Assembly: GCA_964562525.1 (NCBI GenBank)
Contig: CAZLTL010000006.1
Coordinates: 31,187 to 95,186, forward strand
Source: an uncultured bacterium
GTDB lineage: Bacteria > Omnitrophota > Omnitrophia > Omnitrophales > Aquincolibacteriaceae
Reading direction: 5' to 3'
Length of the DNA stretch: 64,000 nt
In this document: positions 10,862 through 63,028 of the stretch, one piece after another
How the letters are laid out: every line of letters starts with the position of its first letter
Position numbering within the stretch: the first letter of the stretch is position 1
Program-made: the position numbers and the translations under genes
The notes under the pieces: model-generated
What the model was told of the DNA's origin: nothing
Seen by the model: only the letters and a program-made list of their open reading frames with translations
The model's database searches: none

Positions 10862-10977
10862 ATCAGAAATCAGAAATCAAAAATCAGAAATCAAAGCCAT
10901 AACTTAGAATTCAAAGATGTTCGAGCATCTAAATGTATTTAATCTATGGTTCTGAGCTCTGATTTCTAAGCTCTAAA
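10862..10977. repeat. Intergenic heptanucleotide tandem-repeat element with an inverted distal arm (mraY-murD spacer)
   Basis: Five tandem heptamers, ATCAGAA ATCAGAA ATCAAAA ATCAGAA ATCAAAG, at 10862-10896. The distal arm TTCTGAGCTCTGAT TTCTAAGCTCTAAA at 10950-10977 has a reverse complement that again reads ...ATCAGAG CTCAGAA. The imperfect dyad is centred near 10920. Confidence 0.8.
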
Positions 10978-10983
10978 CTTATT

Positions 10984-12237
10984 ATGAATAATCTTCCTCC
11001 GGATATCGGAAAAAATGTGGTCGTTCTTGGTTTGGGTGAAAGCGGCTATCAAAGCGCGCTTGAGCTTCAAAAGCTGGGTTTTGATGTTTTTGCCACGGAT
11101 AAATCCGATACGCAAATTTTAAGAGAACGGGTCGATGCTTTGTCACGGAAAGGCGTTCAAGCGGAATGCGGAAAGCATACTTTTGACCGCGTCCAGTCAG
11201 CTGACTGGGTTTTAATTTCTCCCGGTATTCCGCCGCAATCAGAAATTTATCAGGCGCTTTTAAAATGGAAAAAGCCGGTTTACAGCGAAATTGAAGCAGC
11301 CAGTTGGTTTTGCCCTTCAAAAAATATTGTTGCGGTGACGGGCTCATGCGGAAAAACTACCACCGTGACCCTCATTCAAAGAATTTTAAAAGAAGCCGGC
11401 CGTGATGTGGTGTTATGCGGCAATATCGGCAATCCTTGGATCGGAGAATTGTCCAAAATCAAGCCTGAAACTTGGGTCGTTTTGGAAGTCAGTTCTTTTC
11501 AGCTTAAACATTGCCGCAAATTCAAACCCCATATCGGAGTCTTGCTTAATATTCATGCCAACCATCTTGATTGGCATCCTTCTCTTGAAGACTATGCTCA
11601 TTCAAAGTTGAAAATATTTGAAAATTTAGTCAAGCATGACTGGATGCTGCTTCAACAATCAGATGAAAAGCAATATGGTCCGATTCGTTCTTCCTCGACC
11701 AAGCATTATTTAAACCCGGTTGGGCAGGAGAGTTTGCTTGAAAATGCCGCGCGCCAAGTTGCTGAAATTGCGGATATTTCGTTTTCGGTGGTGGAGCATG
11801 TGTTTCGCAACTTTGAAGGGCTTGAGCATCGGCTTGAAAAGTTTTGGGAAAGTGACGGCGTTCAAGCCGTGAATGATTCCAAGTCCACGACACCCGCTTC
11901 GCTCATTTGGGCTTTAGGGCGTTATCCTGATCAGAGTGTGGTCTTGATTACGGGCGGCAGAGTTAAAACGCCCTCTTTCGTGGAGTGTTTGCCCGCGCTT
12001 AAGGCGAAAGCAAAAAAAATTGTTGTGATCGGTGAAGCACAGCCTATGATGCTTCAAGAGTGGGCCGAGCTGAATCCTCATTCCGCCGAGTCGCTTGCCG
12101 CTGCTTGCAAAACCGCATTGGCTTCTGCCCAAAAAGGGGATACGGTCCTTTTTTCACCCGCTTGCTCCAGCTTCGACATGTTCAAAAGCTACATCGACCG
12201 CGGTAATCAGTTTAAATCCCTCATTCGCCAAAGATAA
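10984..12237 (+). CDS. murD: UDP-MurNAc-L-alanine--D-glutamate ligase
   Basis: N-terminal Rossmann VVVLGLGESG and Mur ligase P-loop VTGSCGKTT. Order in the dcw cluster. Confidence 0.94.
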   Translation: MNNLPPDIGKNVVVLGLGESGYQSALELQKLGFDVFATDKSDTQILRERVDALSRKGVQAECGKHTFDRVQSADWVLISPGIPPQSEIYQALLKWKKPVYSEIEAASWFCPSKNIVAVTGSCGKTTTVTLIQRILKEAGRDVVLCGNIGNPWIGELSKIKPETWVVLEVSSFQLKHCRKFKPHIGVLLNIHANHLDWHPSLEDYAHSKLKIFENLVKHDWMLLQQSDEKQYGPIRSSSTKHYLNPVGQESLLENAARQVAEIADISFSVVEHVFRNFEGLEHRLEKFWESDGVQAVNDSKSTTPASLIWALGRYPDQSVVLITGGRVKTPSFVECLPALKAKAKKIVVIGEAQPMMLQEWAELNPHSAESLAAACKTALASAQKGDTVLFSPACSSFDMFKSYIDRGNQFKSLIRQR

Positions 12238-12434
12238 ACTGTTCCTTACTATTCTCAGACCTGTGATCTAGGATCTGAGCCTTCAATGCTATGATTTGCT
12301 ATAAATGCTAGCTGTTGCTATGCACAATGAATAAAAAGTCATTAAAGATAGCTGTAAATATTGTAATTATTTAATCTTCTAGGTAGCTTTCTATAGGAAG
12401 AACAGACTTTCTAATATGAAAAAAAACTAAATTC

Positions 12435-14013
12435 ATGAATAGAGTCCCGAGAATTTACAAGCTAATCGCAGTGTTTACCGCACTTTGCTTAGAGTGCACG
12501 TCCATCTCCATTCCCACTTTGCATGCTCAAACAGTTCCGCAAAATATTCTTTCTGTAAAAAAACTGAATCCTGAGATTCTTAAATTACCGGAAAAGTTTG
12601 GTGAGGTGGTGGAAAGCCATGCGGGAAATGGAAATGTGATTGTGGTGCAGGACGCGCACGCAATTCCGGATGCGCAGAAGAATATCGCGAATGTGATCAA
12701 GTATATGCAGCAAGAGTATGGCGTGGGAACCGTTGCACTTGAAGGTGCGAGCGGCGATCTCGATCCGCAAATCTTCCGCAGTTTTCCTGATAAGAAGCTG
12801 CTGCGAGAAGTGATGAACGGGTACATGAATTCGGGTGAAATCGCGGGCGGTACGGCTGCTGCGATTTTCGACGAAACCACAACGAAGTATGTCGGGGTAG
12901 AAGATTGGGATGTTTATGAAGAAGGTTTGGGGCTTTATCTCTCCGCGATGGATAAGACCGCAGCCATTGAAGCTCAGCTATCTGCTTTGCGTGAAAAGTT
13001 AAACAAGGAAAAAGAAGCGATTTATCCGCGGGCGTTACTTGAAGTTGATCACGAGATCGAAAAGTTTTATGAAAATGCCGCGCAGCTAACGGAACTGATT
13101 AAAGTGTTGGGAGCGATTCAAGCCCCTAAGGCAGGCAGTGAACTTGAAGCGGTGTGGAAGGAAGTTTCGAAAGCCCACAGTCCGGCGACCGGAGGCGAGA
13201 GAAAGGACATAGAGGTTCGTGCTTTAGCAGCGAAGGTCGAAAAGGTGTTAAAGAGCCCAGGGGCGGTGAAAGCGTTTAACAGCCGTAAACAAGAATGGAT
13301 GACAGGTCAGATCAGCGCAGAAGCCTTTGCACTCAATTTGAAAGAGTTTGCTGATCAAAGCGGACTTAATCTTGAGATGTCCTCCGATTTGCTCGGAATG
13401 GTACGAGACCAGCAAACGTTAAAGGGGCTTGAAGGAACCAAGCTGTTTCGGGACTTAGAGATTTATATCCGTGAAGTGAAGATGCAGTTAACGCAAAGAC
13501 AACAGACGGATGTTTCGGTTAGCGGTGTGAATGCTGAGATGTCAGCGATTCGGGCGTTGGATGAACGGACGAATTCACTGCGTGTATTAACGAAGCTATC
13601 AAAACTTGAGTTGTCCCGCCAAGAGTGGACGAATTTATCGGGGAATTTGGTGTTTGAGGCCTTTGCGGCATTGGGATTAAAACAAGAAGACTTTCTGTTC
13701 CACCTCGCTTTTTATCTGAATGCTGAAGAACGCGACCAAATCTTTTTCGATAATCTCAAAGCTTCGGTCACCGGCCTCCGGCCTTCCGTGATTGTGGCCG
13801 GTGGTTTTCACGCGGAAGGAATCACGAGCCGCCTCAAAGAGGCGGGAATGGGCTATGCGCTTGTGATGCCGAAGATCAATCACATTCCTGAAAATAACTC
13901 GTACAAAGCGCAGATGCGCGGGGAAGTGTCGTGGAAAGATTATTTTGAAGTTGAGAACGGTCGCATCCATCTTTACAAGGCGTTTGTGCGCGCAACGCGC
14001 GACAAGCTTGTCG
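12435..14013 (+). other. ORF A head module: signal peptide plus split TraB/TIKI/ChaN-like domain
   Basis: The signal-like N-terminus is [11 protein letters not shown]...[41 protein letters not shown] and [12 protein letters not shown] resemble the GTxH...VE and GxGHxxG motifs of TraB/GumN/TIKI-fold proteins. The same motifs occur in ORFs B and C. Confidence 0.5.
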
Positions 14014-17000
14014 CAGACCGGAGACCGGAGGTCGGAGGGCAGAGTGACTCAGAGCTCCGGACCCCGGACTTAGGCCTATTAAAAGCTTGGCGCGATCAAA
14101 TCATCCGTGATTTATCGGATATGGGGAAGGTGAATCGCGCGGCCTGGTACACACGGTTTATGGATGAAGTGGTGGACGAAAGCCTGAAGCACACCGATGC
14201 CGACAAGCTGATGATCAAAGTCGACAATTTTATCCGCGGTTTGCGCGGACTTGAGAAGAACAATCAAATTGATCAGGCAAATATAGCGGATTTACTCAAG
14301 GCAAGTATGGCGTCACCTGCTGTTACTTCCCCAGCTGTTGTCGGTACCCCGCTGTCGTTTCCGGTTAATCCCGCAAGTGAAGTTACCATGCAAGAAGCAT
14401 GGGCTAGCGTCCGGGAGTCTCTTCCTGTCGCCATAATTAATGCTTCTCCAGCAGATAATACGCAGTTGCAAGAGCAGGTGACGACGATTCAGGCAAATGA
14501 GCCAATTAATTACAGTGGACTCTCAGCTGAGTTTGATGCAGCAGCTATTAAGCAAACGGCCTTACTTAGCAATTTGGTTCGGCGGGTCTCAAGTATTACC
14601 GATGCAGATTTGGAGTATGAGTGGAATGAAATGGGACGACTTCTTCGTTTGGTGAACGGGATGAAAGGAGAGCCCGACCCGCGAGATCCGGAAGCAATTT
14701 TTGGTTCTGAAGAGCGCAATTTTAAACTACCGGTTGCAATGCGTTCCAAAATTGTGCGCAGTTTGAGTGAGCGAATTCAGTTTAAGTTGGCATGGACGCA
14801 TGCTGTAAATACATTTTTGAACGATGCTGAAGGTGTATCCAAGTTGGCAAGCCGGGCTGCCCCTGCATTAAGAGAGAGTAATGATGAGGGCGCGGCTGTT
14901 GAATTTGAAGTTTTGTCTCCTGGACAATTAACGGACGAAGAATTCTACCGTACTCTTTTGGGCGACAACGGAACCGTGAGCAATGGGTTGATTGGTTCGG
15001 GAAATTTAGTAGCAGCTTTTCGACTTGTTACTCAGAAAATGGCCGTCATGATCAAGGCCGGACCCGAAGGAGTTCCCGGTGGATCAAGAGAGCTAATCAA
15101 GCGCGTTCATGCCTTAGATGGAGTCGCTAAAATGATCCGCGATGAAATTACAACAATGCAGCGCTCCGAAGCGCGGGTTAATGAAAATGCGCCGACAGAT
15201 CAGGCGGCACGGGAGGAAGCGCTTGCAACTGATGAGAAGCTGAAAAGGCTTGATGTCACGACTTTCTTTAAAGAGATCCTTAAATCGGAATGGAAGTGGT
15301 TGTTGGTTGGTTTTGTTTTATTAATTTTGAGCACCATGCTCTACGACTTAGTCGCTGTTACTACGGTCGCGCAATTTTTTTTAAAATCTCTGGGGGTGGG
15401 TGTTGGTTTCTCTTGGGGTGCGATTTTGCTGTTCAATCCTTTGACAGTGCTTACCCATGAATTAGGGCATTTTCTAACCTACCGATTAGTTGGCGGTAAA
15501 TCCGATAACACGTTTGGTTTTAATAGGCACTCCTACTTTTTCAATGCAGATGACATATATAAACTCCCCATATGGAAAGTTCGGATTGTGGATATGGGTG
15601 GGCTTGTGATCAACACAGCTATTTTTGCCACAATTGGTCTTATTTCGTATCTTACTTTGGGCGCGACCCCTGTTCTTATTGCTCTCGCTGGACTTCAACT
15701 TGCTGAATTTATAATGGCTTCCGGTGATTATGAGAAATTCTTCAATGCCAGAGGGTATCAGGCTTTGAGCCTTGATATTGCAAAGTTTCAGGAAGAGATC
15801 AAAAATTACAAACCTGAATTTCATGCAGATGGCACGCGAATATCGGCTGAAGCTGATCGCCCTTTGGATGAGCAAACTCAACGCGAAGCACGGGTGGATA
15901 AAACAGAAGAGGCTTTGAGAAGTGGGGCGTTAACAGTTGAAGGGAAAACGGCGGTTTTTGGCCCTCAGGCGAATAAAGATTTTGCGATAGGAGTAAGCCC
16001 GGAAGTTTCATTTGTGGATTTAGATAAAGCCGATTTTGTAACGAAAGCAGAAACATTTCTCTTTCAATCGCTTTTCTTTGCGGCGGCTTTTTTAAAAATC
16101 CCTGTTGGGAAAGAGCAGAAATTAAATACTTACAAGGAAGTATTTGAAGCGCTTCAAAATGCCAAAGCCGCGGTCAAAAATGCCGGTGGCTTAAGCTTGT
16201 ATGCTGCCCAAGAAAAATTAAAAGAAGCCCAAGCTGAAAAAGATGAGTTTGTGGCTGAAGCTCAAAAGAGAGGTTTTGCCGAGTTTTTGCTTCCGGGTGG
16301 AATTCTAAGCCGCCGCATGGAGATTTTTGTTCCCAATGAAAATCAGCGCGAACGGCTTTTAAAGTATTTAACCTTAACTTTTGTAGGGCAAAGTAAGGAA
16401 TCGCTGCTCTCAGACATTCTGAAAGTGCAGCAAAAATTAGGAGTCACTTTTGATCCGGCGGTTCTTGAGCAGCTTTTAGCCGAGTTTGAATCAAAGCGCA
16501 GCTTCATGTTTCCCGGGGGAGTTTTTGCCGGGAAAATGGATGCAGAGATTCAAGATATTTTTGGTCAATTTATTCAGGTGAAAGTTTTAAGTCAAACCCA
16601 AAGTGTTTCAAGCCCCTCAGTTGGAAATATTCAGCTCAATCTTTCAGGTGCGTTGGTTATGGGGGCAGGCCAATCTGAAGTCGCTGTGGATTGGGATCAA
16701 GTTTTACAGTCAGGAGAATTGGCTCCGGCATGGTCTGAAGCTTTTACTGCACAGCTCAAGAAGGCGCTCATCTTTAAAGATGGGAAACTGCGTGTGTTTA
16801 ATCTCGGGACAGGCGACCCCACCCCGTTTAGCCAGAATCAAGATTACACACATATGGCATTTATTGTGAATGGGAAAATGATTGTTACCGATCCGTCCAT
16901 TCGCAGTATTCGTAATCTTGAGCGTTTGGGATTTTTGGAAAAAGTTGAGGCAATTCATCTGACCCATGTTCACTTTGACCATGTAGGTGGCATTTTAGAT

Positions 17001-20000
17001 ATAGCGCGCCGTAAACTCAAAAAATCGGAATCCTTGCCTAAGCTTAAGCTGGTTATGCCGACTGTTGTTGCGCTGCAACTCGAAAGAACTCTTGCTTATA
17101 ACTTTTCCACGATGGCTGATGATTCAAATTATGATTTCAGCCAGCTTGCGCTGGTCAGCGAACTTTTCGATTATCGGGGACCTGAGAAAATCAATAAAAC
17201 GATAGAAATTTCCCAATTACAAGAATCTGCAGAGTTTAAAGGTGTTCAAATTGAACTTGCACCAACGTTTGGACACCCGATTCCAACCTACGGAGTCAAA
17301 TTGATTACTCAAGAGGGTTTGAAGATAGCCTATTTGTCCGATTCAGTGATGCCAACCCCAACGATTAAAGCAGCGGATGGAAAGGCAATCCCTAATCCTC
17401 GATATTCGGAGTTTGTAAGTTACTATGCGGATTCAGATATATTGATTGCTGAAAATGGCGTGCCGGGCGTGCATATTACTCCCGAGCAGCTTGCCGAGGC
17501 TTTCCCTGAGCATATTAATAACGGAACTCTGTTTACTGTTCATTCGTCGGGTCCCCAAGCTCAAAAAGGGTTAATTCGATTTATGCCGGGCATGATCTTG
17601 TCTCCGCTTCAATCGAATCAAAGAAAGCAAGATGTTCAGCAAAGTGCAGCGACGCTCATTGAGAATGAAGCTATTCGAGATTTTTTAAAGTTAAATTTAG
17701 AGTTAGCCCAAGAACTTTCGAGTATGGGAACGAAGGTTTCATTTTCTGAGGGGGAAGTTCTTTTTCAGCAAGGCAACCCGGTTTATGACTTTGATCATGT
17801 TTATATTTCTTTATCCGGCGAAACAATCGTTGAGGGGCCCGGTGCAAAGCGGCTTCCTTCGATTGGAGCTGGGAGATTAATCGGTGAAATGGCGCTTTTG
17901 ACTAAGGCTTTGACGCAAGAACAATATGACCAGATCATGGTAGCCATCGGGAAGGGTAAGGATACGGCAGCGCTCGATTTTTTTGGGAGAGTGACTTACG
18001 ATTTGGTAATCGAAGGGCAGCCTCCTTATCGCATTGTGAATCCAAGTTTTGACTTAGAAATAGAAGCGAAGGAATTGACGGAGGATCAAAAATCAAAGTT
18101 AAAGCCTGTCTTTGATATTGCAAAGTCAGGTAAACCCATTCCGCGATCGGTAACGGTTCGGGCAGGTGCGGGAGCAACTTATTTAGCGATTCCCAAAGAT
18201 GCTTTTTTACAGTTTTTAACACGAATTGATGCGTCAAAAATCGATTCGAGTCGACAAGCATTCATTTCAGCTATTTACGCACAAATTGGCATCAATCTTG
18301 ATTCTCGAAAAAAGATGAGTGAGTTAGCCACTCCCACTCAGAACGAAACAGATGTGGTAAAGGCATCAGCTGATACGTCAGTTCGCTCCGAAGCGCGCGC
18401 GGATGTTGAATGGTTTAACTGGCGCGTGGACAAACAAGGCAATCCAGTTTCGAATGCCGGGCCTATGAGCGAGCTTGTCACTTTGAATGTTGGTGACAGT
18501 ATCTACTTTGAGGTTCCAAAAAATAAGCCGGGTTTGATCGACTATTACTACCAAGTCGGAATGGAGGGCGAGAATTTTACTTTTCAGCGCTATGAACAAA
18601 GCGGGTCTGTTGCTCAACCTGCTGGTAAGAAAATCGAAATTCCCCGATCACTGCAAACGGATAAGGCCGCTAAAAACAGTGATAACTATCTATTTAGTTT
18701 TCAAGTTAATAATGGAAAACTAATGGTGAGTTCAGGCCAGAAATATGGCTTGCTAAAAAGTAAGGTTAAAAAAGACGGAGCGATTGGTGATAGTAAACCG
18801 AGCGTGCGACGAAAAAAATTTGACGATGCCGCTCGGTCTTATCGTGAAGCATTATCAAAAACAGATTTCCCCAGGTTGAGAAGTTTGTCAGCTGAATTAG
18901 ATGAAAAAATGGACGAAATTTTGGGGGTGGCTACGAATGGTTTATTTCTAATACCGCTTGGTTGGCTTGAAGGACGAATCAAAGAAATGGATGCGGGGTT
19001 GCGTCGAATTGAGAGACATGAGTTATCGGGTCAGGGTAAAGAAGCTTTGGGCTGGGCGATGCAGGTGCTGACGGAACAAATCAATCATTTTCGAAATTCT
19101 GTTGTTGCTGTTAATTTAGAACTCAATCTTTTGACCCAAGGAGAGAAAATTAATTACGATGTTTTTAGTGAGTTGATAGAGAGCTTTCTTCAAACCAACA
19201 GCTTATTTGCATTATCTCAAGAGTTGAATGTTCGCATGCAGTCCTACCCTGAGACAATTGAGTTCAGTTTAAAAAATGTCGATGCCGATTCAAAGATTTC
19301 TGCGCTTAAAAGGCGAATTTTCGATTATGGGCAAGCAACGGCTACTTTGACGCGTCTTGAAGACGCTCGAATATTTTTTGAGAACAGCTGGAAATTGTAT
19401 GATGATCTTGTTGGGTTGATTCAGCAAATGGCATTAGAAATTCAAAGACGTGATGAAACCGAAATGACGATTGAAAGAGGTGCTGAGGCAGCAAAAGAAC
19501 AGCGCAATCAGCTTTGGCGGAGTATTGATTATTATGAAGTGCTAGGTGTTTCTCGAGATGCTTCTCTAGGGGACATAAAAAATGCTTATCGCAGTTTAGT
19601 TCGCGCGGGTAATCATCCGGATAAGGTCGCAGGCGACTCTGCTACGCTAAAAGCAGCTGAAGAGAGATTTAAAGAAATAGGACCGGCATATGAGGTCTTA
19701 AGTAATGAAGTAGACCGCGCTGAATATGACAAAATTCATTTTGCCCGTTCCGAAGCTCGTTCGGTAGACTCAGGGCAAGCGCGGGACTCGTATGAGCGCT
19801 ACAAGCTTTTATCAGGGACTTTGGCAGATTTACCTGACCCTGTATTTGTCAACGATGGGGAAACGATTACTTTGCGGATTCCGCATGATGAAGTCGAAGG
19901 TAGTCAGCCCGAGCTTGATCTTTTGGTTGTATTCAAAAAATTTAATGGGAAGGTGTTTTTTGCCCACCTAGATTCATTTTCAGACTTATCAATGCTTGAT

Positions 20001-23000
20001 GAATATTACCGTTCTGCTGATCCTCTTCAGGAAGGTTCTCGAATCAAATGGGAAGAGGTGAACGAGACTTCAGAAGTTGAGATTATAGGTCGTGAGGAGG
20101 AAATGGATAGTGAGGGTACCAAGGTCAAGATTGTTTTTAGTGAACAGGGTTTTACGATTGCCAATGCCTCGATCTCGGATGTTTATTATTTTGAGGGTAA
20201 GCCCGGTCCGGAAATTATTGCTTCCGCTCTTCGGGATAGTTATCTTTCAAGTGCGAGCACAGGTTTGCCCATAGCCACCGAGCCAATTTTTATTGCCGGG
20301 GAGGATGCAACTGAAATTTTTAACTTGGTCACTGAGTTTATTAATCAGGGTCCGTATGTTCCTGCTGCAGGCGAAACCGCTCTCTACACAAAGGTGAAAC
20401 AACAAATTAGGTTGATTACCGAAAGAACCGGCGAAAAGTATCGATTCAACCCGATGATTCAAATAAATGCCTTAAGTGATACTTATAGAGCTTTAAACAA
20501 TTTTCTCATGAATCGATTTACTGACCTGGAAGGCTTGGAAAAAGGTGTGGTCATTCTCAAGCGAATTCCTAATCTTGAGAAGCTGATCGAAGTTTTAAGA
20601 CATTTAATATCAGCTTACGAGCTGGCTTTTAATCACCTTGAGAATTCAACTATTGAGATCGAGGTGGATGAAAAAGAAAACCATCGGCGTCATGCCTTGC
20701 AAATGCTGGTTGAGTTAAAAAAGATTGTTAATTCATATGATTCAATTCCTCCTGCCGAACGACCGCGGGCTGAAATCCAAGGAGAAGTTCGAATGGCAAG
20801 GTTGCCCAGCCAAAAAAACTTTTCCGAGTTCATTTCTTACAATGGCGATAAAATTCCACTTTGGGCAATTAAAAGAATTTATCTGCCGGATAATAGGGTT
20901 ATTCAATTTGGTGAGATTTCTCAGGCTAATAACGAGGATGGTGTGTATGATCGGGAGGATCGCACGAGAGACGTTAGGAATGCCTTGTCACCATTTCCAG
21001 AGAGTGCGGAGATCGTTTTTGAGCTGCAAGATGGCGTTTTATTAAAGCGAATTTTGGAAGCGGAAGAGTATGAGACGATAACGGCAGTCTATCCGGTTGA
21101 TTTTGACCCCAAAGAATTTAGCAGGCTTCCGCACGGAATAGATTTACCGGAGCGGCGGTTTATAAATGCAGTTAACGTGAACGGGTTTATTACCACCCTT
21201 TATGAGTTGGAATCTCTTTTGCCTGAGACTGGGTTAGCCGGCAGGACAGTGACTTTTTTCTATTCCGCGAATAACCATCTTCAAGCCTTCAAAATCAGTG
21301 ATGAAGCTAAACCTCAGTCTGAGCAATATGTTTACTCTCAGTTTCGAAATTCAAGCAATGTTCAGCCTATGTCCGCGCCTTTTTCTGCTCAGGAAACTCA
21401 AGAAATTGCAAAAAAGGATTTGGTTGACCTATTTGCGGATCTCTTTAATCGCCGTGCGTTGACCTCCGCGCAGAGGGTGGTTCCGTTGAGCGCGCTTATT
21501 CTTCAATTTTTGGCTGTCTCGCTTAACGCTAAGGCTGTTTCAGATTGGGCTCAGGAAGGCAAAGTTCCGCTGTTTGAAGTTGAGTTGGCGAACGAACAAA
21601 CCATTTCATTCAGCGGGCTTAATCCTGCTTTACATCACGATGATGCCGTGCGGATTGAAAGACTGCTATCTCAGATTGACGGGGGATTGGATGCCGCTTC
21701 TTTTCGAATTGTTTTGGCGCCTGCTGGACCGGCTACCCAGTCGAATCAAGCGGGGCAATTTTTTGATCGACCCGGGCGTGGTTTGGATGAGTTCAATGCC
21801 TGGCATAAGTTATCTGATGTCTTGGAACTGTTTTTTCTGTCAGTGGGCGAAACTGGCAAAGACAAGAAATTGGATGCTGCGTCAAAACAAAAACTTTTAG
21901 ATAAACTCGCCGTGCTTGTTGAGGCGATAGCCATGATTCATCCTTCAGTAACAGGAAGTGAAATTTATCATACTTTATATGCTGTCATGGATGCTTCAAT
22001 GTTTAGGGCTAAAAAACTAGATACAGGCAGCAGAATCAATGTTTTGATTAATTTGGCGCGCCAAATCAGAGCCGCTGCGCCTCAAGATCCTCAACAGAGC
22101 ATTTATGTGCAAGGTGAGTTTGAATCAAAATTAAAGACCCCAAACTTAGATCTAAATGAATTGGCAAAAGAGACTGCCCGCTCCGAAGCCCGTTCGGCAG
22201 ACTCAGGGCAAGCGCGGGAGGCTGAGGCGGTTGCGGGAGATGTGTTTGGCTTTTTTAAATCGCCCGCGGATTATTCTGCAGACCAGATAAATACTTTGGC
22301 AGATGAAATTGATACATTGGCTGATAAACAAGGGCTTGATGTTTTTGTGAATCTCTTGCGATCGATAGCTCGAGACTTAGCTGTCGTTAGTGTTCAGGGG
22401 AGCGAAAATATTTTAAGCAAAGAAGCGACAAGTTTTGCCGTGAAACTTTTTGTTGGACGCATGATGGCAGCAAAGCGGCAGTCGACTTTAATAGATGTAA
22501 AAATCGAGAAGCCAACCATTGCTTTAGCATTAAAATTGAATGATGCCCAAAAAGCTTCTCTGGGAGATAAGTTGTCCAGCGAATTGGCTGAAATTCTGGG
22601 TGCGGTTCAGATTGAGGCCAAAGATTTTAAAGAATTAGGTGCGTTTTTTAAGAGCGTAGGGGTTTTAGTGACAACGATTGATCCCGATCTAGCAAACGCA
22701 GTTGTATTAGAAAGTTTTGGTGCGGATTGGAGTGGTTTACCTGCCGTGGGTGTCTTAGAAGAATCGCAGCAATTTGATTCGGAGTTAGAAGGGATGCGTA
22801 TTTATTTGCAGCTTTTGATCGCGGCTTATTTAGCTCGGAGCTTTCCGGATAAGAAAGTAATTTTGACACCCGAGATTGTTGGCGAGATTAATAAGCTGCT
22901 GTTTCAATCTGATGCAGGGCAAGAAGGAATTGTGCAGATACAAAATGGTCAGTTAGTTGTTAAACGAAGCAGTCTGCTGGCATATATTCAAACCTTATTC

Positions 23001-23033
23001 GCGGCGCAATCTGCCGTTGCAGTCGCCGCGTAA
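12435..23033 (+). CDS. Giant modular protein A (3,532 aa): signal peptide, head module, multi-enzyme cargo, tail module
   Basis: Uninterrupted 10.6-kb ORF. Recognisable in-frame motifs occur along its whole length (see the domain sub-features). Its N- and C-terminal modules are paralogous to the ORFs at 41847 and 45438. Confidence 0.85.
13179..13199 (+). repeat. In-frame heptamer triplet AGTCCGG CGACCGG AGGCGAG (encodes SPATGGE)
   Basis: Three 7-nt units (21 nt) inside the ORF A head module. Confidence 0.55.
14015..14070 (+). repeat. In-frame heptamer repeat with inverted arm (AGACCGG AGACCGG AGGTCGG ... CCGGACC CCGGACT)
   Basis: Direct reading of the sequence. The arms match as reverse complements at 11 of 14 positions. 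It encodes [18 protein letters not shown] at the end of the head module. Confidence 0.75.
15291..15755 (+). other. ORF A cargo: M50/S2P-like intramembrane metalloprotease-like module
   Basis: Several hydrophobic helices. HELGH (15456-15470) lies within a predicted TM segment ([18 protein letters not shown]), as in site-2 protease/M50 families. A downstream MASGDYEKF may supply the acidic ligand. Confidence 0.55.
16786..17560 (+). other. ORF A cargo: metallo-beta-lactamase-fold hydrolase domain
   Basis: The HxHxDH signature [10 protein letters not shown] is at 16965-16982. Downstream are His/Asp positions (TFGHP, YLSDS, TVHSS). Confidence 0.75.
17650..18230 (+). other. ORF A cargo: cyclic-nucleotide-binding (CAP_ED-like) domain with a large internal insertion
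   Basis: [30 protein letters not shown]...[12 protein letters not shown], then about 75 aa, then [26 protein letters not shown]. Confidence 0.65.
19527..19742 (+). other. ORF A cargo: J-domain (DnaJ N-terminal domain)
   Basis: [34 protein letters not shown]...[23 protein letters not shown], with the HPD tripeptide at 19614-19622. Confidence 0.85.
22179..23030 (+). other. ORF A tail module (shared with ORFs B and C)
   Basis: It starts at the last RSEAR motif and ends ...[38 protein letters not shown]. Compare B ...EDGIEKAGKNWRITKPSLSRLKDIWQRFQAALQVMQSA* and C ...EQEGVGRYKLTNNSLVLYLETILADIEALLATAQSA*. Confidence 0.6.
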
Positions 23034-23073: not shown

Positions 23074-23108
23074 GTCGTTGGTCTCTAGTCGTTAGTCTTT
23101 AGTCTGTG
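23074..23108. repeat. Intergenic heptamer tandem array (GTCGTTG GTCTCTA GTCGTTA GTCTTTA GTCTGTG) between ORF A and ftsW
   Basis: Five 7-nt units. The reverse-complement units (TAACGAC, CAACGAC) are the same unit seen in frame at 42670 and 46658. Confidence 0.75.
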
Positions 23109-24229: not shown

Positions 24230-24233
24230 CCCG

Positions 24234-28586: not shown

Positions 28587-29429
28587 ATGGCTAAACGAAA
28601 AAACAATGTTTCAACTCGAAAAAAGTTTAAATGGGGTTCGCTTTATGACTGGGTGCCCAGCGCGCTTGTGCAATCCTTCGCATGGGTTGTCTTAATTTTG
28701 TTTTTGGCGGGCTCAGGGATGGGCGTTCGCGAAATGCTTTATGCTGACCCTGCTTTGCAATTGCGCCAAATCAAGGTTTATCCTCCTGACGCGATGTCGA
28801 TGGCGAAATTGGAATCTTTGCAGAAGAAATACTTCGGTCAAAACACGGCTGAAATTGATTTAAAAGCCATATCGAAAGATTTGGAAACCGACCATCAAAT
28901 ACTCAAAGCGGAAGTCCGCCGCGATTTACCCAATCAGCTTGAAATTCATGTTGAGCGCCGCGTACCTTTTGCCTCGGTTCATTTCGGTCGCAACGGTAAA
29001 TGGGCCCTGGTTTCGCGCGACGCGGTTGTGATTGATTTGATCCAACAGCCGTCCGAAGGGTTGTACGTAGTTGAAGATGATTTGCTGGCGAGCCAAAAAC
29101 CTAAAGTGGGATTGAGATTGTCGCGCGACATTTTAGATTTAGTCCGCACGACGGACGCATTTAAGAAACATCCCGCGGTGCAGAATGAGAAGATCAATTC
29201 AATTCAAATGCTGCCGAATGACGCGGCCATTTTGAACCTGAGTGATCTGTATTTAAAAGTCAGCTTGAATGATCCGGATCCGTCGGAAGCTTTCAGTAAA
29301 TTTCAATATTTACTTGAAACGGAGAGCCGTGCCGTGATCGAATATGTCGATTTGAGATTTAACCGCGTTATTTTAAAGCGCAAAGCAGAAAAAAAAGAAG
29401 ATGAACCCCGGCGAAATAAGAAAAGGTAA
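28587..29429 (+). CDS. ftsQ: Cell division protein FtsQ/DivIB (TM plus POTRA)
   Basis: Basic N-terminus, one TM (FAWVVLILFLAGSG), a POTRA-like segment (LRQIKVYPP...EIHVERRVPFA). Positioned between ddl and ftsA. Confidence 0.8.
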   Translation: MAKRKNNVSTRKKFKWGSLYDWVPSALVQSFAWVVLILFLAGSGMGVREMLYADPALQLRQIKVYPPDAMSMAKLESLQKKYFGQNTAEIDLKAISKDLETDHQILKAEVRRDLPNQLEIHVERRVPFASVHFGRNGKWALVSRDAVVIDLIQQPSEGLYVVEDDLLASQKPKVGLRLSRDILDLVRTTDAFKKHPAVQNEKINSIQMLPNDAAILNLSDLYLKVSLNDPDPSEAFSKFQYLLETESRAVIEYVDLRFNRVILKRKAEKKEDEPRRNKKR

Positions 29430-45437: not shown

Positions 45438-48400
45438 ATGCGTAACTCGTCCTGGCTTAAATTCACCGCTGGTGTATTTACGTTTCTTTTCGTTTTAAAC
45501 GACATTGGGCAAGCTGCGCCTGCGCTTGACTTTGCGGCGTCGTTGCGTTCAGAAATTCCGCGCGTATCCCATATTGAAATTCCACCTGAAATGGCAACTC
45601 TGGAAGATTGGTATGAATCGCCGAACGTAGGAGATACGCGGCTTATGCTTCACATTCAAGATGCTCACGCTCAGCCTGAAGCGCAAGCACGAATCCGTGA
45701 TCTCATCCACTATTTAAATAAACAGTATGGTTTTAAAACAGTTTTTGTTGAAGGTGCAGCGGAACAACTTGATGTGAAGTGGCTGCATCCATTTAAAAAT
45801 TCTGAACAAAACAAAAAGTGGATTGAAGAAAAAACATCTTCAGGCGAAATGTCGGGCGTTGATTTGGCATTGCTTGATGGCGTTGCCGGGCTCAAGGCTT
45901 TGCCAATTGAAACAATTGAAGGCTATCGGGATGGTTATCAAAAACTGCACGCGGTTTATACCGCTGAACCAGAGGTGAACGAGTTTATTAATTTTTTTGA
46001 CTCCAAGCTCGATTCAGCGGCATCCAAGATTTTGAATGAAAAAACAAGACGTATTCTTTCTGAGTGGAAAAAGTTTGAGTCTGGACATCGTGATTTTCTG
46101 CCTTTTGTTGAAAAATTAGCCGCGCTTGCGAAAGAGGATCTCAAGCTTGATTTAGACGCTCTCTACTCCCAAATCGAATGGCCACAACTGAGTCGGCTAC
46201 TTGTTCTTCAGCGAGTTGAGAAAGAACTCGCTGAAGCGGTGCCGACAGGGCAAAGGTCAAAAGTCAAAGGTCAAAGCCATAACTCAAAGCCGGTTAGCTG
46301 GAGAGAACAAGCGCTCGATGAAAAGGAAATAGTTCTCAATTTGCTAAAAGACGAACAAGCTAGCTCGGGATTGATCCATGGTCTCGAGCGGTTTGACGAG
46401 AAACATCTCAACTTAAACCGTATTACTGTCGGCGATGGAAGGCAATTTTCGAGCCCGCGCGCTTTAGTTGAGCAGTTAGTTGAAGAAACTCGCAAATTTG
46501 AGATTGATTTGCGAGATTATCTCGCTTTTTTGAAATACGCCGGATATTTGATTTTACGCGGCGAACTTCAGCCTTCTTTGCTTTTCAAGGAAATAGAGCG
46601 CCTTTTTGAGAAATTCCTCGAGAAGACTAACGACCCTTCGGCTGAGCTCAGGGCAAGCCAACGACTAACGACTAACGCCGGAGAAGATGTTCAGCGTGAA
46701 GCGCAGAGCGTTAAGCTGATCGAGATCTACCGCGATTCATTTCTTTTAAAAAAGTTGCTTAATCTTGAGCTTTCTCGCGAGGAGTGGCGAAAAGCGCTTG
46801 CGAAGCGGGAGGAGCTTGAACCGCAAAAGATTTTAGGGAGACTAAAGAATCTTGGAGCCGCGGTCCACGGTCCACGAGCCACGGCAAACGAAAAAAAGAT
46901 CACGAATCTTGAACCTCGAACTACGGAAAATCAGGACGTGGAGCGCACGTTTGAGAATGCCTTTGATTTTTATGATGCCGCGTTAGCGCGTGAAGATATT
47001 TTCTTTGAGAAAATTAGTTCGTCTTTGGCTCAAAACGATAAAGCGATTTTGATAACGGGCGGTTTTCATAGCGAAGGAATGAATGCGTTTTTTCGTGAAA
47101 AAGAAATTTCTTACGGAACCTTAACGCCGCGTATTACCAATCTTGCGCCCACTTCTTTGTACCGCAGCGCGATGATGCAAGCGACAAATTTGTCTAAAGT
47201 TTCGTCTCAGCCCACCCCAGCCTTGGCACAGCCGCTCGAGACTATTGCCGCCATGACTGCTTTGAGCGTGGTTGCAGTTCGTTCTGAAAGCCGACTTCAG
47301 ACTGAAGCTGCCGATTTTGTTCAATGGGTTGAGGATTTGAAATTAGTTCGGGATCCAAATAATGCCGCTGAAATCGAAACTGTTTTGCTTCGCCATCGAG
47401 ATCTTTTTAAGCATAGACCCGATGAATTTCCTGAAGAGTCGGTTAGCTTTCGCGGAAGAAATTTGCAGAAGATTCCTTCTCGTTTGATTCATCAGCTTGA
47501 TCTTACTTGGCTTAATGGCCGAAATTCTGATGCCAAACCGATTACAAGAAATGACTTGTTTCAGTTGGTATTTGACCGGCCTTTGGATGAAAACGAAGCT
47601 AAGGGGTTTGCCGGGTATGACAACATACAAAGTTTGCGTGATTTGTTCTATTTTTTGATTACTAAAGAGCATGGCAGAAGTTTGCAGCTTTTTGCAGAGC
47701 AGTATTTTGCTTTGGACTCCGGACAACGAGAGCTTTTTTTGGAGCAAGCATTTGATATTCATCAAATTACTCAGTATTTGATGGGGCAGATGGCTCGTAA
47801 CGATGATTATGAAGTTTCTGATGAGATTTTAACGGCTTACGCGAAAGCATGGCCAATTGTCATTCAATTTGGAGAGGCAGAGCTTCAATCGGGCGGGATA
47901 TTAAAGCGGTTAAAGACCGTTCCGGATTTGCCGGTTGACATCGATTTGCGCTCAAATCAGGATTCGGGGCAAGAAGTAATTTTAGAAGATTGGGAGCGAG
48001 CCCTTTTGCTGCTTGAGAACTATGTTGAGATCGGAGATGAGTCGATTGATACTCAAATCGGAGTGGTTTCATTGGGATTAAGGAGTTTGGCGGGGGATCA
48101 GGCAACGGAGGTTCGCTGGTCTCGTGCATCATCACTGGAACGGGCTGTGGCAGTTCGTCTGGAAGGAACTTTGCCTCTATCTCGCGAGGAAGCGAATCGA
48201 TATTTGCGATGGCTTGAAGTTGCGGATAGCGATTTGAATGGATTGGATCAAGCCAAACTTTTTGAGCCGAATCGTCTGGTCTTGATCGGCAAAATTGCCA
48301 GTTTGCGTGAACAGATAGTTGCTCGTCAGCTGCAGTCTGAATCTCGAGAGGATGAGCGTGATAGGGGAATGGCTCGATCAGAATTACGTACCGTTGAAAT

Positions 48401-59639: not shown

Positions 59640-59651
59640 TCTTATCGCGAC

Positions 59652-60320
59652 TTAAGCTTTCAGAGTTCTGAGACGGGCTTCCATTTTGCGTTGGGTCATC
59701 ATGTCGCCTTTTTTATCCGCGACCGCGATACCTTGCTTGTAAATTTCGACAGCTTTTTCTTGATTGCCCAAAGCTTCCCACGCTTGTCCTAAACCATAAT
59801 AGGAAGAGGAGTGATCGGGGTCTACTTGAACCGCCTTCTCAAACGTTTGGCGGGCGAGATCTTTTTTATAGGCGTCAAGGTAAGCGTTTCCCAAACTGAA
59901 ATAACCCAATACATCATTAGGATCGAGCTCAATCACTTTTTTGAAACGCTCAATTTTTTCGAAATTATCGTTGGCAGCCGGTTCAACCTGAGGTTTTAAC
60001 CCTGCGGCTTGGCGCCAGCCCAGCGTAGCGGCCTTGGCTTGGGCTTCCTCAGCCTCAGGAATCTTACCCTGGCGCATGAGGCAGCGAGAGAGGTTGGTAT
60101 AAGCCATGACGGCATTGGGATTGATTTTGAGCCATTCGGCGATGATTTGAACGGCTTCGCTGATTTTGTCTTGATTGATTAAAATAACTGCAAGCGCTTC
60201 GTACCCGTTTTCAAACTTGGAATCAATTTCAATTGTATGCGAAAGTTTTTTACAGGCTTCTTCGGTTTGACCATTTTTGAAGTGGAGAAGTGCTTGCTTG
60301 AATAATTCTTCTGGTTTCAT
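59652..60320 (-). CDS. Tetratricopeptide-repeat protein (222 aa)
   Basis: Several 34-aa TPR units (e.g. AYTNLSRCLMRQGKIPEAEEAQAKA; GYFSLGNAYLDAYKKDLARQTFEKAVQVDP; YYGLGQAWEALGNQEKAVEIYKQGI). Confidence 0.85.
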   Translation of the reverse strand: MKPEELFKQALLHFKNGQTEEACKKLSHTIEIDSKFENGYEALAVILINQDKISEAVQIIAEWLKINPNAVMAYTNLSRCLMRQGKIPEAEEAQAKAATLGWRQAAGLKPQVEPAANDNFEKIERFKKVIELDPNDVLGYFSLGNAYLDAYKKDLARQTFEKAVQVDPDHSSSYYGLGQAWEALGNQEKAVEIYKQGIAVADKKGDMMTQRKMEARLRTLKA

Positions 60321-60388
60321 GGCGTAAGTATAACAGCTGTGTCTATGGGATGTTATTTAAGGGGGATTCTCTGATATAATTCTCGCTT

Positions 60389-61162
60389 ATGAAATCAGCC
60401 AAAAAAGACGCTTCAGCTTGGGTTGCTATTCCGATTTCTTGCATCACTTGGGCGGGGGCGGTTATTTTTACCATCCTCTATGTTTTGATCGGATTTATTG
60501 TTTTTTTTCCGATCACGCTCATTCAGCGTGATTTGTCGCGCCGGTTAATTCATTGGAGTGCAATTCTTTGGGCGCGATCTATTATTGCTATCACGCCGGT
60601 TTGGAAAATGCAGGCAGAGGGGATTACGAATATCGATCCCAAAAAAACCTATTTGATTGTCTGCAATCACCAAAGCATGCTCGATATTTTGATTGTCGCA
60701 GCGAAATTACCGGTATTGTTTAAGTTTTTGGCGAAGAAGGAGTTGTTCGATATTCCGGTTTTGGGCTGGCATATGAAGCTGGCAAAATATATTCCTGTCG
60801 ATCGCTCCAACCGCACCAGCCGCCATCAAGCTTTAGTTGATTTATCGGATTGGCTGAAAAAAGGTGCCAGCGTACTCTTTTTTCCCGAAGGAACGCGCAG
60901 TTTAGACGGCGAGATTCACGAGTTTCGCGCAGCCGCTTTTAAAATTGCGCGCGATGCCGGTGTGGAAATTTTACCCGTGGTGGTGGACGGAACAGGCGAT
61001 GCTTTACCGAAACATTCTTGGCTTTTGAAAAAGCACGTTGAGTTTCAATTAAGTGTGCTGCCGTCGATTGATATGAAGGCTGTTTCCGACGATGAAATGG
61101 ATGCTGTGAAGGATCGCGTGCGCGAAAGCATGATCGCAAAACTGAAAGAACTCCGTGCTTAG
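60389..61162 (+). CDS. plsC: 1-acyl-sn-glycerol-3-phosphate acyltransferase
   Basis: HX4D motif NHQSMLDI, FPEGTRS, and an N-terminal TM segment. Confidence 0.88.
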   Translation: MKSAKKDASAWVAIPISCITWAGAVIFTILYVLIGFIVFFPITLIQRDLSRRLIHWSAILWARSIIAITPVWKMQAEGITNIDPKKTYLIVCNHQSMLDILIVAAKLPVLFKFLAKKELFDIPVLGWHMKLAKYIPVDRSNRTSRHQALVDLSDWLKKGASVLFFPEGTRSLDGEIHEFRAAAFKIARDAGVEILPVVVDGTGDALPKHSWLLKKHVEFQLSVLPSIDMKAVSDDEMDAVKDRVRESMIAKLKELRA

Positions 61163-61907
61163 ACTGTTGACGCTCAACACTTGGCAGGAGCGCGGTCCCT
61201 GGCGCGAACGTTGGGAATTAATTTTTGCCGGACTCAAATTTTATTTGCCTGATATTGTCGCTTTTCAGGAAGTCTTTAACATGGATTGGGCGGATGAAAT
61301 TCAGAAACGTAGCGGATTTCCTTATTTATCCAAGAGTGGACAAAACTCCGGGCTCATTTTTCTATCCAAGCATCCCATATTAAAATCTGAGTGTCTGACT
61401 TATAAAACAAAATCACCGAATGAAGACTACAACCGCTACGCGCATTTCGTGCTGTTCCAAGTCGGGCGTCAAAGGATTGCAGTGTTCAACACCCACCTTT
61501 CATGGCTTTTGCCCGAAGATGATATTCGATTAGGGCAAACGCGCGAATTACTTGGGTTTATGCGTCAAAAATCACGGCGTTGGCTTGGTTTAGGGGGCAG
61601 TTACCCTTCCTTTCTCACGGGAGATTTGAATTCTGACCCGAATAAGCCTTCCGTGGAAGCCGTCAAAAAGATAATGACAGACACTTATGCGGAACTTAAC
61701 CCAGGGCAGCCGGGTATCACTTGGGATTATAAGAATCCCTTTGCTGAACGCGCGCGCGATCGCATGCCTGAGCGCAGGCTGGATTACATTTTTACCCGCG
61801 GCATGAAAGGGAAGACCAAAAGCTCGGAAATCGTCTTTAATCAGCCGGACGCGAATGGCACTTTTCCGTCCGATCATTTGGGCGTGATGACGGAGATACA
61901 GTTATGA
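61155..61907 (+). CDS. Endonuclease/exonuclease/phosphatase (EEP) family protein
   Basis: LLTLNTW...DIVAFQEV at the N-terminus, GDLNSDP, and C-terminal PSDHLGV. Confidence 0.82.
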   Translation: MLRLLTLNTWQERGPWRERWELIFAGLKFYLPDIVAFQEVFNMDWADEIQKRSGFPYLSKSGQNSGLIFLSKHPILKSECLTYKTKSPNEDYNRYAHFVLFQVGRQRIAVFNTHLSWLLPEDDIRLGQTRELLGFMRQKSRRWLGLGGSYPSFLTGDLNSDPNKPSVEAVKKIMTDTYAELNPGQPGITWDYKNPFAERARDRMPERRLDYIFTRGMKGKTKSSEIVFNQPDANGTFPSDHLGVMTEIQL

Positions 61908-63028
61908 CAGACCGGAGACCGGAGGCCGTAAGATCGGGCGGCGCTAAAGAGTATCAGCGGATTAAAAAAACGCTTTCGCTAGTTCATTTATTTTTAACGC
62001 CCGCGTTATTGGCTTTGTGGATTTTTACTCCGCTCTCCATCATGGTACAAGAGTTCGCAGTGTCAGCTTCGGATATTGCTTTCTTGCAAGTTGCTTTGTT
62101 TTTTCTTCTTTTTTCTTTGTTCTTTTTTATTATTGATTTGCCTTTGTCGTTTTATTCTGGGTTTGTAATTGAGCACCGCTTTCAGGTTTCTAATTTAACT
62201 TTCTTAGGTTGGCTGCGCGAAAATGGGAAACGCTCCTTACTTTCATTTGTTTTCTCGCTGGTGTTAATTCAGGGATTGTATTTTTTGATTGAGCGCCGTA
62301 CTTCAGATTGGTGGTTATGGGCTTGGGCGGCTTATGCCGGCGTGAGTTTTATTATGGGCAAGCTTTTTCCGGTATTTATCGTGCCGCTTTTTTATAAATA
62401 TCAGCCTTTGCCCGAAGGTGAGTTAAAAGACAGAATCTTGGCGTTGCTTAAACGGTTTGGGTTGCCGGCTGCGAATCTTTTTTCAATTAATTTAAGCAAG
62501 ACAACTAAAAAAGCGAATGCGGCTTTTATGGGGTTAGGGAAAACGAAGCGTGTTGTGTTGAGCGATACTTTACTTGAGAATTTTACTCCCGCCGAAATCG
62601 AGCAAGTAGTCGCGCATGAGCTTGGACATTTTAAACATCAGGACATCTGGAAACAGCTTGGGTTGGGACTTTCTATTTCTTTGATTTGTTTTTATCTTGG
62701 GTACCAGGGTGTTGAAAATATGCTTTCGGTTGCCGGGCTTGAGACAGCGGCGGATGTGGCGGGGTTACCGCTTTTGATGCTGATTTTTTTGGGTGTGTCT
62801 TATGTCAGTATGCCAATTACGAATGGCTTTTCGCGGAGCTGTGAATTCGCGGCGGATCGGTTTGCCTTGGATGCTTGTCGCGATCGCGATACGTTTATTT
62901 CAATGATGAATAAGCTGGGAAAACTCAATTTGTCGGACCCCGATCCTGCGCCATGGTATGAGTTTATTTTTTACAGTCATCCTTCGAATAAGAAAAGAAT
63001 CGCTGCTGCGCAGAGTTGGAAATCATGA
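61904..63028 (+). CDS. M48-family (Ste24/HtpX-like) membrane zinc metallopeptidase
   Basis: Multiple TM helices, HELGHFKH, and a downstream EFAADRFA. The N-terminus (MTDRRPEAVRSG) is encoded by a heptamer repeat. Confidence 0.85.
   Translation: MTDRRPEAVRSGGAKEYQRIKKTLSLVHLFLTPALLALWIFTPLSIMVQEFAVSASDIAFLQVALFFLLFSLFFFIIDLPLSFYSGFVIEHRFQVSNLTFLGWLRENGKRSLLSFVFSLVLIQGLYFLIERRTSDWWLWAWAAYAGVSFIMGKLFPVFIVPLFYKYQPLPEGELKDRILALLKRFGLPAANLFSINLSKTTKKANAAFMGLGKTKRVVLSDTLLENFTPAEIEQVVAHELGHFKHQDIWKQLGLGLSISLICFYLGYQGVENMLSVAGLETAADVAGLPLLMLIFLGVSYVSMPITNGFSRSCEFAADRFALDACRDRDTFISMMNKLGKLNLSDPDPAPWYEFIFYSHPSNKKRIAAAQSWKS
61909..61929 (+). repeat. In-frame heptamer triplet AGACCGG AGACCGG AGGCCGT at the 5' end of the M48 peptidase gene
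   Basis: CAGACCGGAGACCGGAGG (61908-61925) is identical over 18 nt to 14014-14031 inside ORF A. Confidence 0.8.

Follow-up and report, generated by a model that had tools for sequence, protein, structure and literature searches.

The subject of this report is a class of short tandem arrays of seven-nucleotide units found in a 64-kb window (the whole stretch of 64,000 nucleotides analysed) of the chromosome of an uncultured bacterium of the Omnitrophota; the arrays lie between genes and, above all, inside one N-terminal domain of large and giant open reading frames (ORFs), and they are frequently paired with an inverted run of similar units. Almost every gene of the window lies on the + strand, as do the array sites and domains described for it below. 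A two-component system is followed by the dcw cluster of cell-wall and division genes (murE, murF, mraY, murD, ftsW, murG, murC, murB, ddl, ftsQ and ftsA), 3′ of which lie glycine-cleavage genes, lplA and the gene of a UvrD-type helicase; then come ORF B (1141 amino acids, aa), ORF C (4733 aa), and genes for an acyltransferase, an EEP-family (endonuclease/exonuclease/phosphatase) protein and an M48 peptidase. ORF A (3532 aa, 12435-23033), which carries metallo-beta-lactamase, cNMP-binding and DnaJ domains, sits between murD and ftsW, breaking an otherwise canonical dcw cluster. The closest named genome is that of Candidatus Omnitrophica bacterium UBA2337 (helicase 96% identical at the aa level), the Logan contigs L086 and L087 (run SRR13355622) are 100% identical to the window, and exact look-ups with the window's proteins found nothing beyond contigs that are identical or almost identical to it; a metagenome scan with ORF B yielded no relatives. 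The sequence covered of this genome is the window itself and the relatives are consensus assemblies; labels of the form L### denote comparison loci or contigs, from relatives or from unrelated controls.

ORFs A, B and C share the N-terminal domain, about 630 aa long with QDAH..EGA..GGFH motifs, which alignments place at 12435-14385 in ORF A, 41847-43700 in ORF B and 45438-47290 in ORF C. Its start is signal-peptide-like. It matches no Pfam family, no PDB relative was found by profile, and Foldseek gave no significant match; the motifs may resemble those of the Tiki/TraB superfamily. An AlphaFold2 (AF2) model of the ORF A domain has a pLDDT of 70-90 over aa 45-620, and the array sites of ORF A fall in its segments 248-253 and 528-544, where pLDDT is below 50.

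Counting as an array at least three units at a given period with no more than two mismatches, we found eight period-7 loci in the window; 100 dinucleotide shuffles averaged 0.36 ± 0.69 and none of them (0/100) reached eight, so that the repeats described in the original prediction are far over chance. The same count gave no locus at periods 8-15, and at period 6 it gave eight against 2.75 in the shuffles, as coding DNA would give. Array density is 125 per Mb in the window and 10 per Mb in 1.47 Mb of unrelated bacterial loci. A larger sample, obtained by a profile scan for metagenome contigs that carry the N-terminal domain, comprised 79 related loci (1.12 Mb) and held 120 arrays at period 7 as against two at periods 8-11 combined; many of these loci come from few metagenomes, with paralogues and a few duplicate contigs among them. 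The repeat class is confined to some lineages of the Omnitrophota, that of the window included. Among the unrelated controls, two hold several period-7 arrays: L068 (Flexilinea sp.) has three in 6.6 kb, and L077 (a metagenome-assembled genome of the Rickettsiales) two in 13 kb.

The nine period-7 stretches that the original prediction had listed are all present exactly as quoted. Seven of them stand by periodicity alone; those at 13179 and 42663 fail that measure and are supported by their match to a unit family. The first is intergenic: in the mraY-murD spacer a left arm of (AAATCAG) x5.4 at 10858-10895 (extent by X-drop; Tandem Repeats Finder, TRF, gives period 7, 4.9 copies, score 61) is followed 54 nt past its end by an inverted right arm, TTCTGAG CTCTGAT TTCTAAG CTCTAAA (10950-10977), which had gone unnoticed and which ends 6 nt before the murD ATG. 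The paired arms are of 36 nt, 72% complementary and 60 nt apart, their best inverted 14-mer match is 12/14, a score seen in just 2% of random segments, and the fold of 10852-10987 has a free energy of -26.7 kcal/mol (z = -2.6). The second intergenic array, GTCGTTG GTCTCTA GTCGTTA GTCTTTA GTCTGTG (period 7/14, 23074-23108), is a lone one that lies 14 nt before the ftsW ATG; TRF scores it 48 at period 14 and 37 at period 7, its reverse complement belongs to the YAACGAC/AGAC family, and no inverted partner was found for it.

Inside ORF A, a hairpin insert of 56 nt (14015-14070) fills the loop of aa 527-546 between two conserved blocks, the downstream one being LLKAWRDQ. Its left arm reads AGACCGG AGACCGG AGGTCGG and its right arm CCGGACC CCGGACT; the arms, of 23 nt, are 78% complementary and 10 nt apart (-29.7 kcal/mol, z = -1.6). 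A decayed copy of the AGACCGG family occupies the ORF A loop of aa 249-255 (13179-13199), in an indel-rich block of alignment columns; it has 8/14 lag-7 matches, and matches the AGACCGG dimer at 14/16 positions with 0.00 such matches expected. In the M48 peptidase gene the family recurs directly behind the start codon (AGACCGG AGACCGG AGGCCGT, 61909-61930), in an N-terminal insertion of about 9 aa relative to the L084 orthologue. The proposed link between the two genes holds: AGACCGGAGACCGGAG is identical at 14015 and 61909, and the arrays there share 16-21 identical nt. A T-rich period-7/14 match at 62094-62138 in the M48 gene was excluded as low-complexity coding sequence of a Phe/Leu-rich membrane helix, not a member of the repeat class.

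The YAACGAC unit recurs, as had been claimed, in ORF B (at 42664), in ORF C (at 46660) and in reverse upstream of ftsW (23076-23107). The ORF B copy is a decayed palindromic element in the loop after VLQRVEKEL (42651-42720), with CATGACA GACGACC AACGACT GACG as its left arm and CTCAGCGTTCAGCC as its right arm; its relation to a copy in L082 is supported by nhmmer (E = 4.5e-10) and by a codon alignment with orthologues and paralogues. The site at 42663 within it has 9/14 lag-7 matches and matches the family with two mismatches against 0.06 such matches expected, and it is the decayed orthologue of a clear array in L082. ORF C has arrays in three loops. The first of these loops, homologous to that of ORF B, holds AGGGCAA AGGTCAA AAGTCAA AGGTCAA AG at 46247-46276 (TRF 4.3 copies, score 46). 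The second holds a palindromic element at 46623-46716 (nhmmer E = 7.7e-8, codon alignment with L082, TRF 2.6 perfect copies), whose left arm runs AAGACT AACGAC, a nested palindromic insert of 24 nt (46635-46658), and C AACGACT AACGACT AACGCC, and whose right arm is TTCAGCG..GCGTTAAGC. The third, beside an indel of 9-10 aa, holds CGGTCCA CGGTCCA CGAGCCA CG at 46861-46883 (TRF 3.4 copies) with a weak partner at 46937-46946. Small palindromic inserts thus break YAACGAC arrays in two places, the 24 nt at 46635-46658 and 21 nt in L082 (~8471-8491), and we take their size range to be like that of the 'small dispersed repeats' of Nostoc. Lastly, an array that had been overlooked, GTCTTGG GTCTATT GTCTTTG GTCTGTT GTCC... 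(63073-63103; TRF period 14, 2.2 copies, score 48), lies in the signal-peptide region of an ORF starting at 63025.

The units are diverse. At the eleven sites of the window there are at least six distinct families (AAATCAG, AGACCGG, YAACGAC, GGTCAAA, CGGTCCA and GTCTNNN), and the pooled set, listed as its 40 commonest canonical unit types, contains dozens. A GAC/GTC core is present in 63/138 units where 23 would be expected, the arrays not being independent of one another. Rfam and tRNA searches gave no match at or near the array sites.

The original prediction had held that every array within a gene has exactly three units and every one between genes five. Neither part survives. At the coding sites TRF and X-drop extension give 2.3-4.3 units, and the figure of exactly three follows from the 21-nt windows that had been chosen. 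Among the pooled coding arrays (n = 129), 43 have three units, 65 four, 17 five, three six and one nine, so that the mode is four; the 12 pooled intergenic arrays, from the window and related Omnitrophota contigs, span 3-6 units; and the array at 63073-63103 is a five-unit coding array within the window itself. We infer, moreover, that making three units from one native unit adds 14 nt and is not frame-neutral. Array length is a multiple of 3 nt in 58 of the 129 coding cases, a count that depends strongly on how the array ends are set. The idea of a DNA-level repeat under selection for frame does hold: coding arrays keep frame and the AGACCGG family is read in different codon phases (phase 0 at 13179, phase 2 at 14015 and 61909); where the unit of a YAACGAC array is read in frame as YAA, it has C (CAA) in the position where T would give a stop (TAA).

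A heptamer run of 3-6 units is frequently paired with an inverted run 2-70 nt away. An inverted 14-mer partner of at least 12/14 within 150 nt accompanies 40% of coding and 75% of intergenic arrays (143 pooled arrays) as against 2% of random segments. Clear examples are found in relatives: at L084 14238-14374 two five-unit arrays stand 70 nt apart and the fold of 14232-14380 reaches -65.6 kcal/mol (z = -9), L084 22013-22134 has the same inverted-pair design, and the inverted pair at L082 4587-4655 folds (4583-4662) with z = -4. Among 48 pairs the sense fold was the stronger in 22 and the antisense fold in 25 (p = 0.83), with 148 G-U pairs against 151. Because there is no sense/antisense asymmetry, we regard the hairpin symmetry as a property of the DNA and not as evidence of a selected RNA structure. 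Hairpin arms are more conserved than hairpin loops.

The arrays have a defined habitat. Six of the seven coding sites first listed lie in the N-terminal domain, each in an indel-rich loop between conserved blocks, and in the window 4/8 strong arrays fall within the 5.65 kb that encode the three domains (8.8% of the window; binomial p ~0.003). In the 79-locus sample the density per 100 kb is 46 arrays in the domain, 4.0 downstream and 3.6 upstream; on array-positive contigs it is 107 in the domain, 6.8 in the rest of the same ORFs, 13 in other large ORFs, 3.9 in ordinary ORFs and 44.5 in non-ORF DNA, which puts the domain at about 15-25 times the other coding DNA of the same contigs. The arrays gather in about five hot spots of the domain profile. 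The loop after VLQRVEKEL houses, with different units, the ORF B site, the first of the ORF C sites and a pair of arrays in the UBA2337 orthologue. The loop before LLKxWRDQ is 24-27 nt long and unstructured in eight listed sequences from across the lineages; in other sequences it measures 48-165 nt, and the entire insert is a hairpin of -24 to -62 kcal/mol with heptamer-periodic arms, at least ten unrelated hairpin sequences being found there in different lineages. A test that calls no arrays gave the same result: in 147 long domain-loop inserts identity at lag 7 was 0.342 against 0.250 in matched controls, with lags 5, 6, 8, 9 and 10 equal, and a hairpin z below -2 was reached by 36% of the inserts and by 9% of the controls (Mann-Whitney p = 8e-10).

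Two further observations concern these loops. The contigs L142 and L152 are about 89% identical and their domain scaffolds about 95% identical at the aa level, and about seven of their loops are wholly different in length and sequence. At the ORF A loop, a near-perfect hairpin with a 12-bp stem, GGGGACAGAGCT..AGCTCTGTCCCC, is found in three lineages (L093 11584-11613, L094 1679-1708 and L095 2025-2054), one of them only about 50% identical to the window at the aa level, and the hairpin's stem has changed less than the conserved coding DNA on either side. The perfect hairpin GGGGACAGAGCTC..GAGCTCTGTCCCC found in L093-L095 at the ORF A loop is not a dispersed family.

In the account that we propose, and that we hold to be evenly poised between right and wrong, the arrays are arms of short, imperfect palindromes that form at the DNA level, are akin to known heptamer repeats and in-frame palindromic elements, and are retained in tolerant loops and operon spacers. 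The arms would arise by slipped-strand duplication of 7-nt units, and template switching across the hairpin could give both arms the same unit. Blocks of about 20-100 nt may at times be copied elsewhere, the route being either gene conversion among paralogous loops or templated insertion at ectopic sites. Copies would then persist where added sequence is tolerated or favoured, in operon spacers and mainly in some five surface loops of the N-terminal domain, where they would be translated as disordered peptides; since loop copies are translated, only in-frame, stop-free versions would persist. After formation they would decay by point substitution and not by gain or loss of units, which would make the arrays a source of novelty in loop length and sequence over evolutionary time rather than a rapid switch. 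Local birth is favoured by the diversity of the unit sequences. Copying, too, is seen: within the ORF B/ORF C family three different loops carry the YAACGAC element, which also lies in reverse upstream of ftsW and in an L082 spacer, and L082 paralogues have, counted by eye, about 87% identity within the element against about 63% in the flanking conserved block; the identical nt of ORF A and the M48 gene and the many copies of one element in L166 are further instances. Spacers that are orthologous also differ in what they hold, the gcvPB-lplA junction between L082 and the window and the mraY-murD spacer between L093 and the window. We therefore favour slippage and template switching with occasional short-patch copying, because the units are diverse, copying has occurred and the window encodes no transposase-like protein (its Pfam domains include no transposase, RAYT, Y1 transposase or reverse transcriptase).

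Several points weigh against this proposal. The mechanism was not observed directly, and the window's own coding copies fold weakly (z -1.6 to +1.5). Of the 79 domain-bearing loci, 31 have arrays and 48 have none. A HIP1-like over-represented word is absent from the window, as is any high-copy family of dispersed repeats. The domain is denser in arrays than intergenic DNA (107 against 44.5 per 100 kb), so that tolerance alone is no explanation; the domain's excess may reflect positive retention of loop insertions, or exchange between paralogues. Genes in the related loci were called by a greedy approximation from ORFs, and paralogy, shared ancestry and a few duplicated contigs inflate the array counts, which are not counts of independent events. 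Finally, in two hairpin families examined for covariation the arms are conserved with almost no compensatory change (0-1 compensatory pairs), which is neutral as regards structural selection.

The main rival, which we consider possible but unlikely, is that these are small non-autonomous mobile palindromic elements, resembling MITEs (miniature transposable elements with inverted repeats) or Rickettsia palindromic elements (RPEs), with incidental heptamer ends, an enzyme encoded elsewhere, and in-frame insertions selected in permissive loops. Such mobility would suit L166, where an element of 100-200 nt is present 12 times or more in two giant ORFs, always in the same frame, its copies being as much as 98% identical over 117 nt; it would suit the occurrence of one family in unrelated contexts (AGACCGG in ORF A and the M48 gene; YAACGAC in ORF B, ORF C, upstream of ftsW and in the L082 spacer), the element that L082 carries between gcvPB and lplA where in the window those genes overlap, and the nested 21- and 24-nt palindromes inside arrays. 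In-frame RPEs also provide a precedent (PMC10969869). However, the eleven sites of the window have at least six different unit sequences, and a single family does not predict that the same loop should hold at least ten unrelated hairpins across lineages. The lack of a transposase, RAYT or reverse transcriptase in the window also counts against mobile elements, and the bias to one domain would require a target preference.

It is decidedly unlikely, in our judgement, that the hairpins are selected functional nucleic-acid structures, whether DNA hairpins or cruciforms that stimulate recombination or slippage in replication and so diversify the loops of a surface-exposed domain, or mRNA structures that pace translation or protect very long transcripts. 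The extreme concentration in one domain, above intergenic density, would fit such a role, as would the wholly different loops of L142 and L152 on scaffolds about 95% identical, the greater conservation of arms than of hairpin loops, and the position of two intergenic arrays, which end 6 and 14 nt before start codons as TAACTGA repeats do (PMC4679880). Against an RNA role, sense and antisense folds are equally stable and the sense strand is not enriched in G-U pairs; and compensatory pairs are almost nil, the window copies are decayed and fold weakly, the 48 loci without arrays carry the domain nonetheless, and close relatives show no length polymorphism. One form of this idea, improbable as we see it, is that the heptamer-armed hairpins are a built-in diversification device for the exposed N-terminal-domain loops of Omnitrophota giant-protein genes, in which hairpin or cruciform DNA would trigger local slippage and template switching along with exchange among paralogues. 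Were it true, a conserved scaffold would carry rapidly renewing loops, in a way that recalls cassette-based antigenic variation, the driver here being palindromes that carry a 7-nt repeat.

The original prediction had favoured contingency loci, in which slippage by one unit would frameshift the giant genes on or off while selection fixed three coding units. A heptamer is indeed not a multiple of three, heptanucleotide phase variation is known, for example, in the HMW (high-molecular-weight) adhesin promoter repeats of Haemophilus influenzae (PMC8262952), and in the window alone the coding arrays (about three units) are shorter than the longest intergenic one (about five). We nevertheless find a phase-variation switch very improbable and unsupported, because the arrays are short and imperfect, their length is constant in relatives, and the orthologues are all in frame. 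Perfect repetition in the window extends to 2.6 units at most (46660-46677), the other runs having 2.3, and the pooled coding arrays, with 3-9 units and a mode of four, show no fixation of three, as the five-unit coding array within the window also illustrates. The array at 23074 is identical in L001, a second sample of the same species; L093 and L094, 98% identical, align without gaps and have the same array length; five related hairpins are equal in length and differ by substitutions alone; and in ORF B the window and L082 have the same unit count at about 80% aa identity, apart from the nested 21-nt insert. Unit number is thus constant across strains, species and paralogues in these comparisons, which are few, and the length variation that had been expected in relatives was seen in none of the orthologues compared. 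No frameshifted (off) allele occurred among the orthologues and paralogues examined, every one of which reads through in frame. Chance, composition or misassembly is almost certainly not the explanation, for although two of the nine sites are at noise level by a direct count of periodicity, the shuffles, the other periods and the unrelated genomes all contradict it, and assemblies made independently contain identical arrays (the window and L001, L086 and L087; L084 and L085; L134 and L163).

Some observations concern the surrounding genes. MraY is 99% identical at the aa level between window 9772-12237 and L093 7239-9740, where MurD is 88% and ORF A 76% identical and the mraY-murD spacers are unrelated; these steps in identity, together with the unrelated spacers, suggest a mosaic or recombination boundary at the mraY-murD spacer. 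In the ftsQ region (28883-29291), 75 of the 82 mismatches to the near-identical L001 contig from another sample cluster in about 400 nt, a pattern that resembles a recombination tract. The motif R-[S/T]-E-[A/L/V/M/I]-R occurs four times in ORF A (aa 910, 1984, 2438 and 3249), once in ORF B (aa 621) and six times in ORF C (aa 980, 1770, 2674, 3784, 4218 and 4448), is absent from the other 10,391 aa encoded by the window, and is also found in homologues; it might be a marker of processing sites or of the boundaries between modules. ORF A also contains an internal repeat of a 45-nt segment (19742-19786 and 22175-22219, 93% identity), with an RSEAR motif within both copies.

Heptamers are the commonest long simple repeats of prokaryotes, and here they have a defined anatomy and a defined habitat. 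The system bears on how 7-nt repeats and palindromes are generated, on how giant genes acquire new loop sequence, and on whether a scaffold-plus-variable-loop design in probably secreted proteins is under diversifying selection. For annotation, such segments should be read neither as phase-variation switches nor as assembly errors.

How do these arrays compare with known systems? Like the short tandemly repeated repetitive (STRR) sequences of cyanobacteria, they are dispersed tandem heptanucleotide units of several families. Cyanobacterial STRR units include CCCCAGT, TTGGTCA and CAACAGT. These match none of the window units and none of the 40 commonest canonical units, and STRR sequences are mainly intergenic and belong to heterocystous cyanobacteria, whereas 129 of the 143 pooled arrays here lie in ORFs, and in Omnitrophota.

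Both the over-representation of heptamers among long simple sequence repeats (LSSRs) and the idea that polymerase slippage makes them trace to Mrazek et al. 2007 (summaries in PMC4679880 and PMC4692102). As far as those summaries describe the LSSR class, ours agrees with it in having arrays of 5-11 nt units beyond chance with period 7 predominant, in its patchy occurrence across lineages, in having several unit families per genome and in some inverted pairs; among the GGGAATC repeats of Xanthomonas, some inverted heptamer pairs are likewise able to form stem-loops (PMC4692102). It differs from the cases summarised there, which are mainly intergenic, in being short (3-6 imperfect units), in occurring in Omnitrophota and in lying mostly in coding sequence, in the loops of one domain.

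Heptamer direct repeats inside genes have a precedent, and their novelty had been overstated in the original prediction: the TAACTGA repeats of Beggiatoaceae, Cyanobacteria and Bacteroidetes, which have 2-6 copies and often lie just upstream of start codons, include a minority that lie within ORFs and fall at the periphery of the protein, away from conserved domains (PMC4679880). In that system, however, there is one genome-wide unit, inverted pairing is rare (one case) and no link to a single domain is reported, whereas here the units are many, TAACTGA not being among those of the window, and pairing is common (PMC4679880). With the contingency loci of H. influenzae HMW adhesins the arrays share a unit length that is not a multiple of three and a place in or next to genes for probably surface-exposed proteins (PMC8262952), but they lack a long perfect tract, do not vary in unit number and have no off-frame allele.

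RPEs and in-frame MITEs are also palindromic DNA lying in frame in genes and translated as extra peptides compatible with the fold; RPEs, though, form families of about 150 bp with conserved sequence in many unrelated genes (PMC10969869). Here each site differs in sequence, heptamer arrays make up the arms, inserts measure 48-165 nt and one domain family is the main host. Near-identical copies of an element spread over unrelated genes are not seen in the window; the nearest to this are the copies within two giant ORFs of L166 and the short block shared by ORF A and the M48 gene. REP (repetitive extragenic palindromic) sequences and REPINs with their RAYT enzymes are a poorer match, as our arrays are mostly intragenic and diverse in sequence, with no Y1 transposase in the window. 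The units of Borg tandem repeats that lie inside ORFs are as a rule multiples of 3 nt. As PMC9879509 describes them, Borg repeats resemble our arrays in local origin at the DNA level, in fast evolution and in the disordered protein segments that they add, but they are tandem direct repeats, whereas here the unit is of 7 nt and the arrays are inverted. Two papers on the giant genes of Omnitrophota leave heptamers and hairpins unmentioned, and one of them reports only 'short, locally stable tandems'. What is new here is the combination: heptamer-armed hairpins, mostly intragenic and concentrated in the loops of one domain of the large and giant proteins of Omnitrophota.

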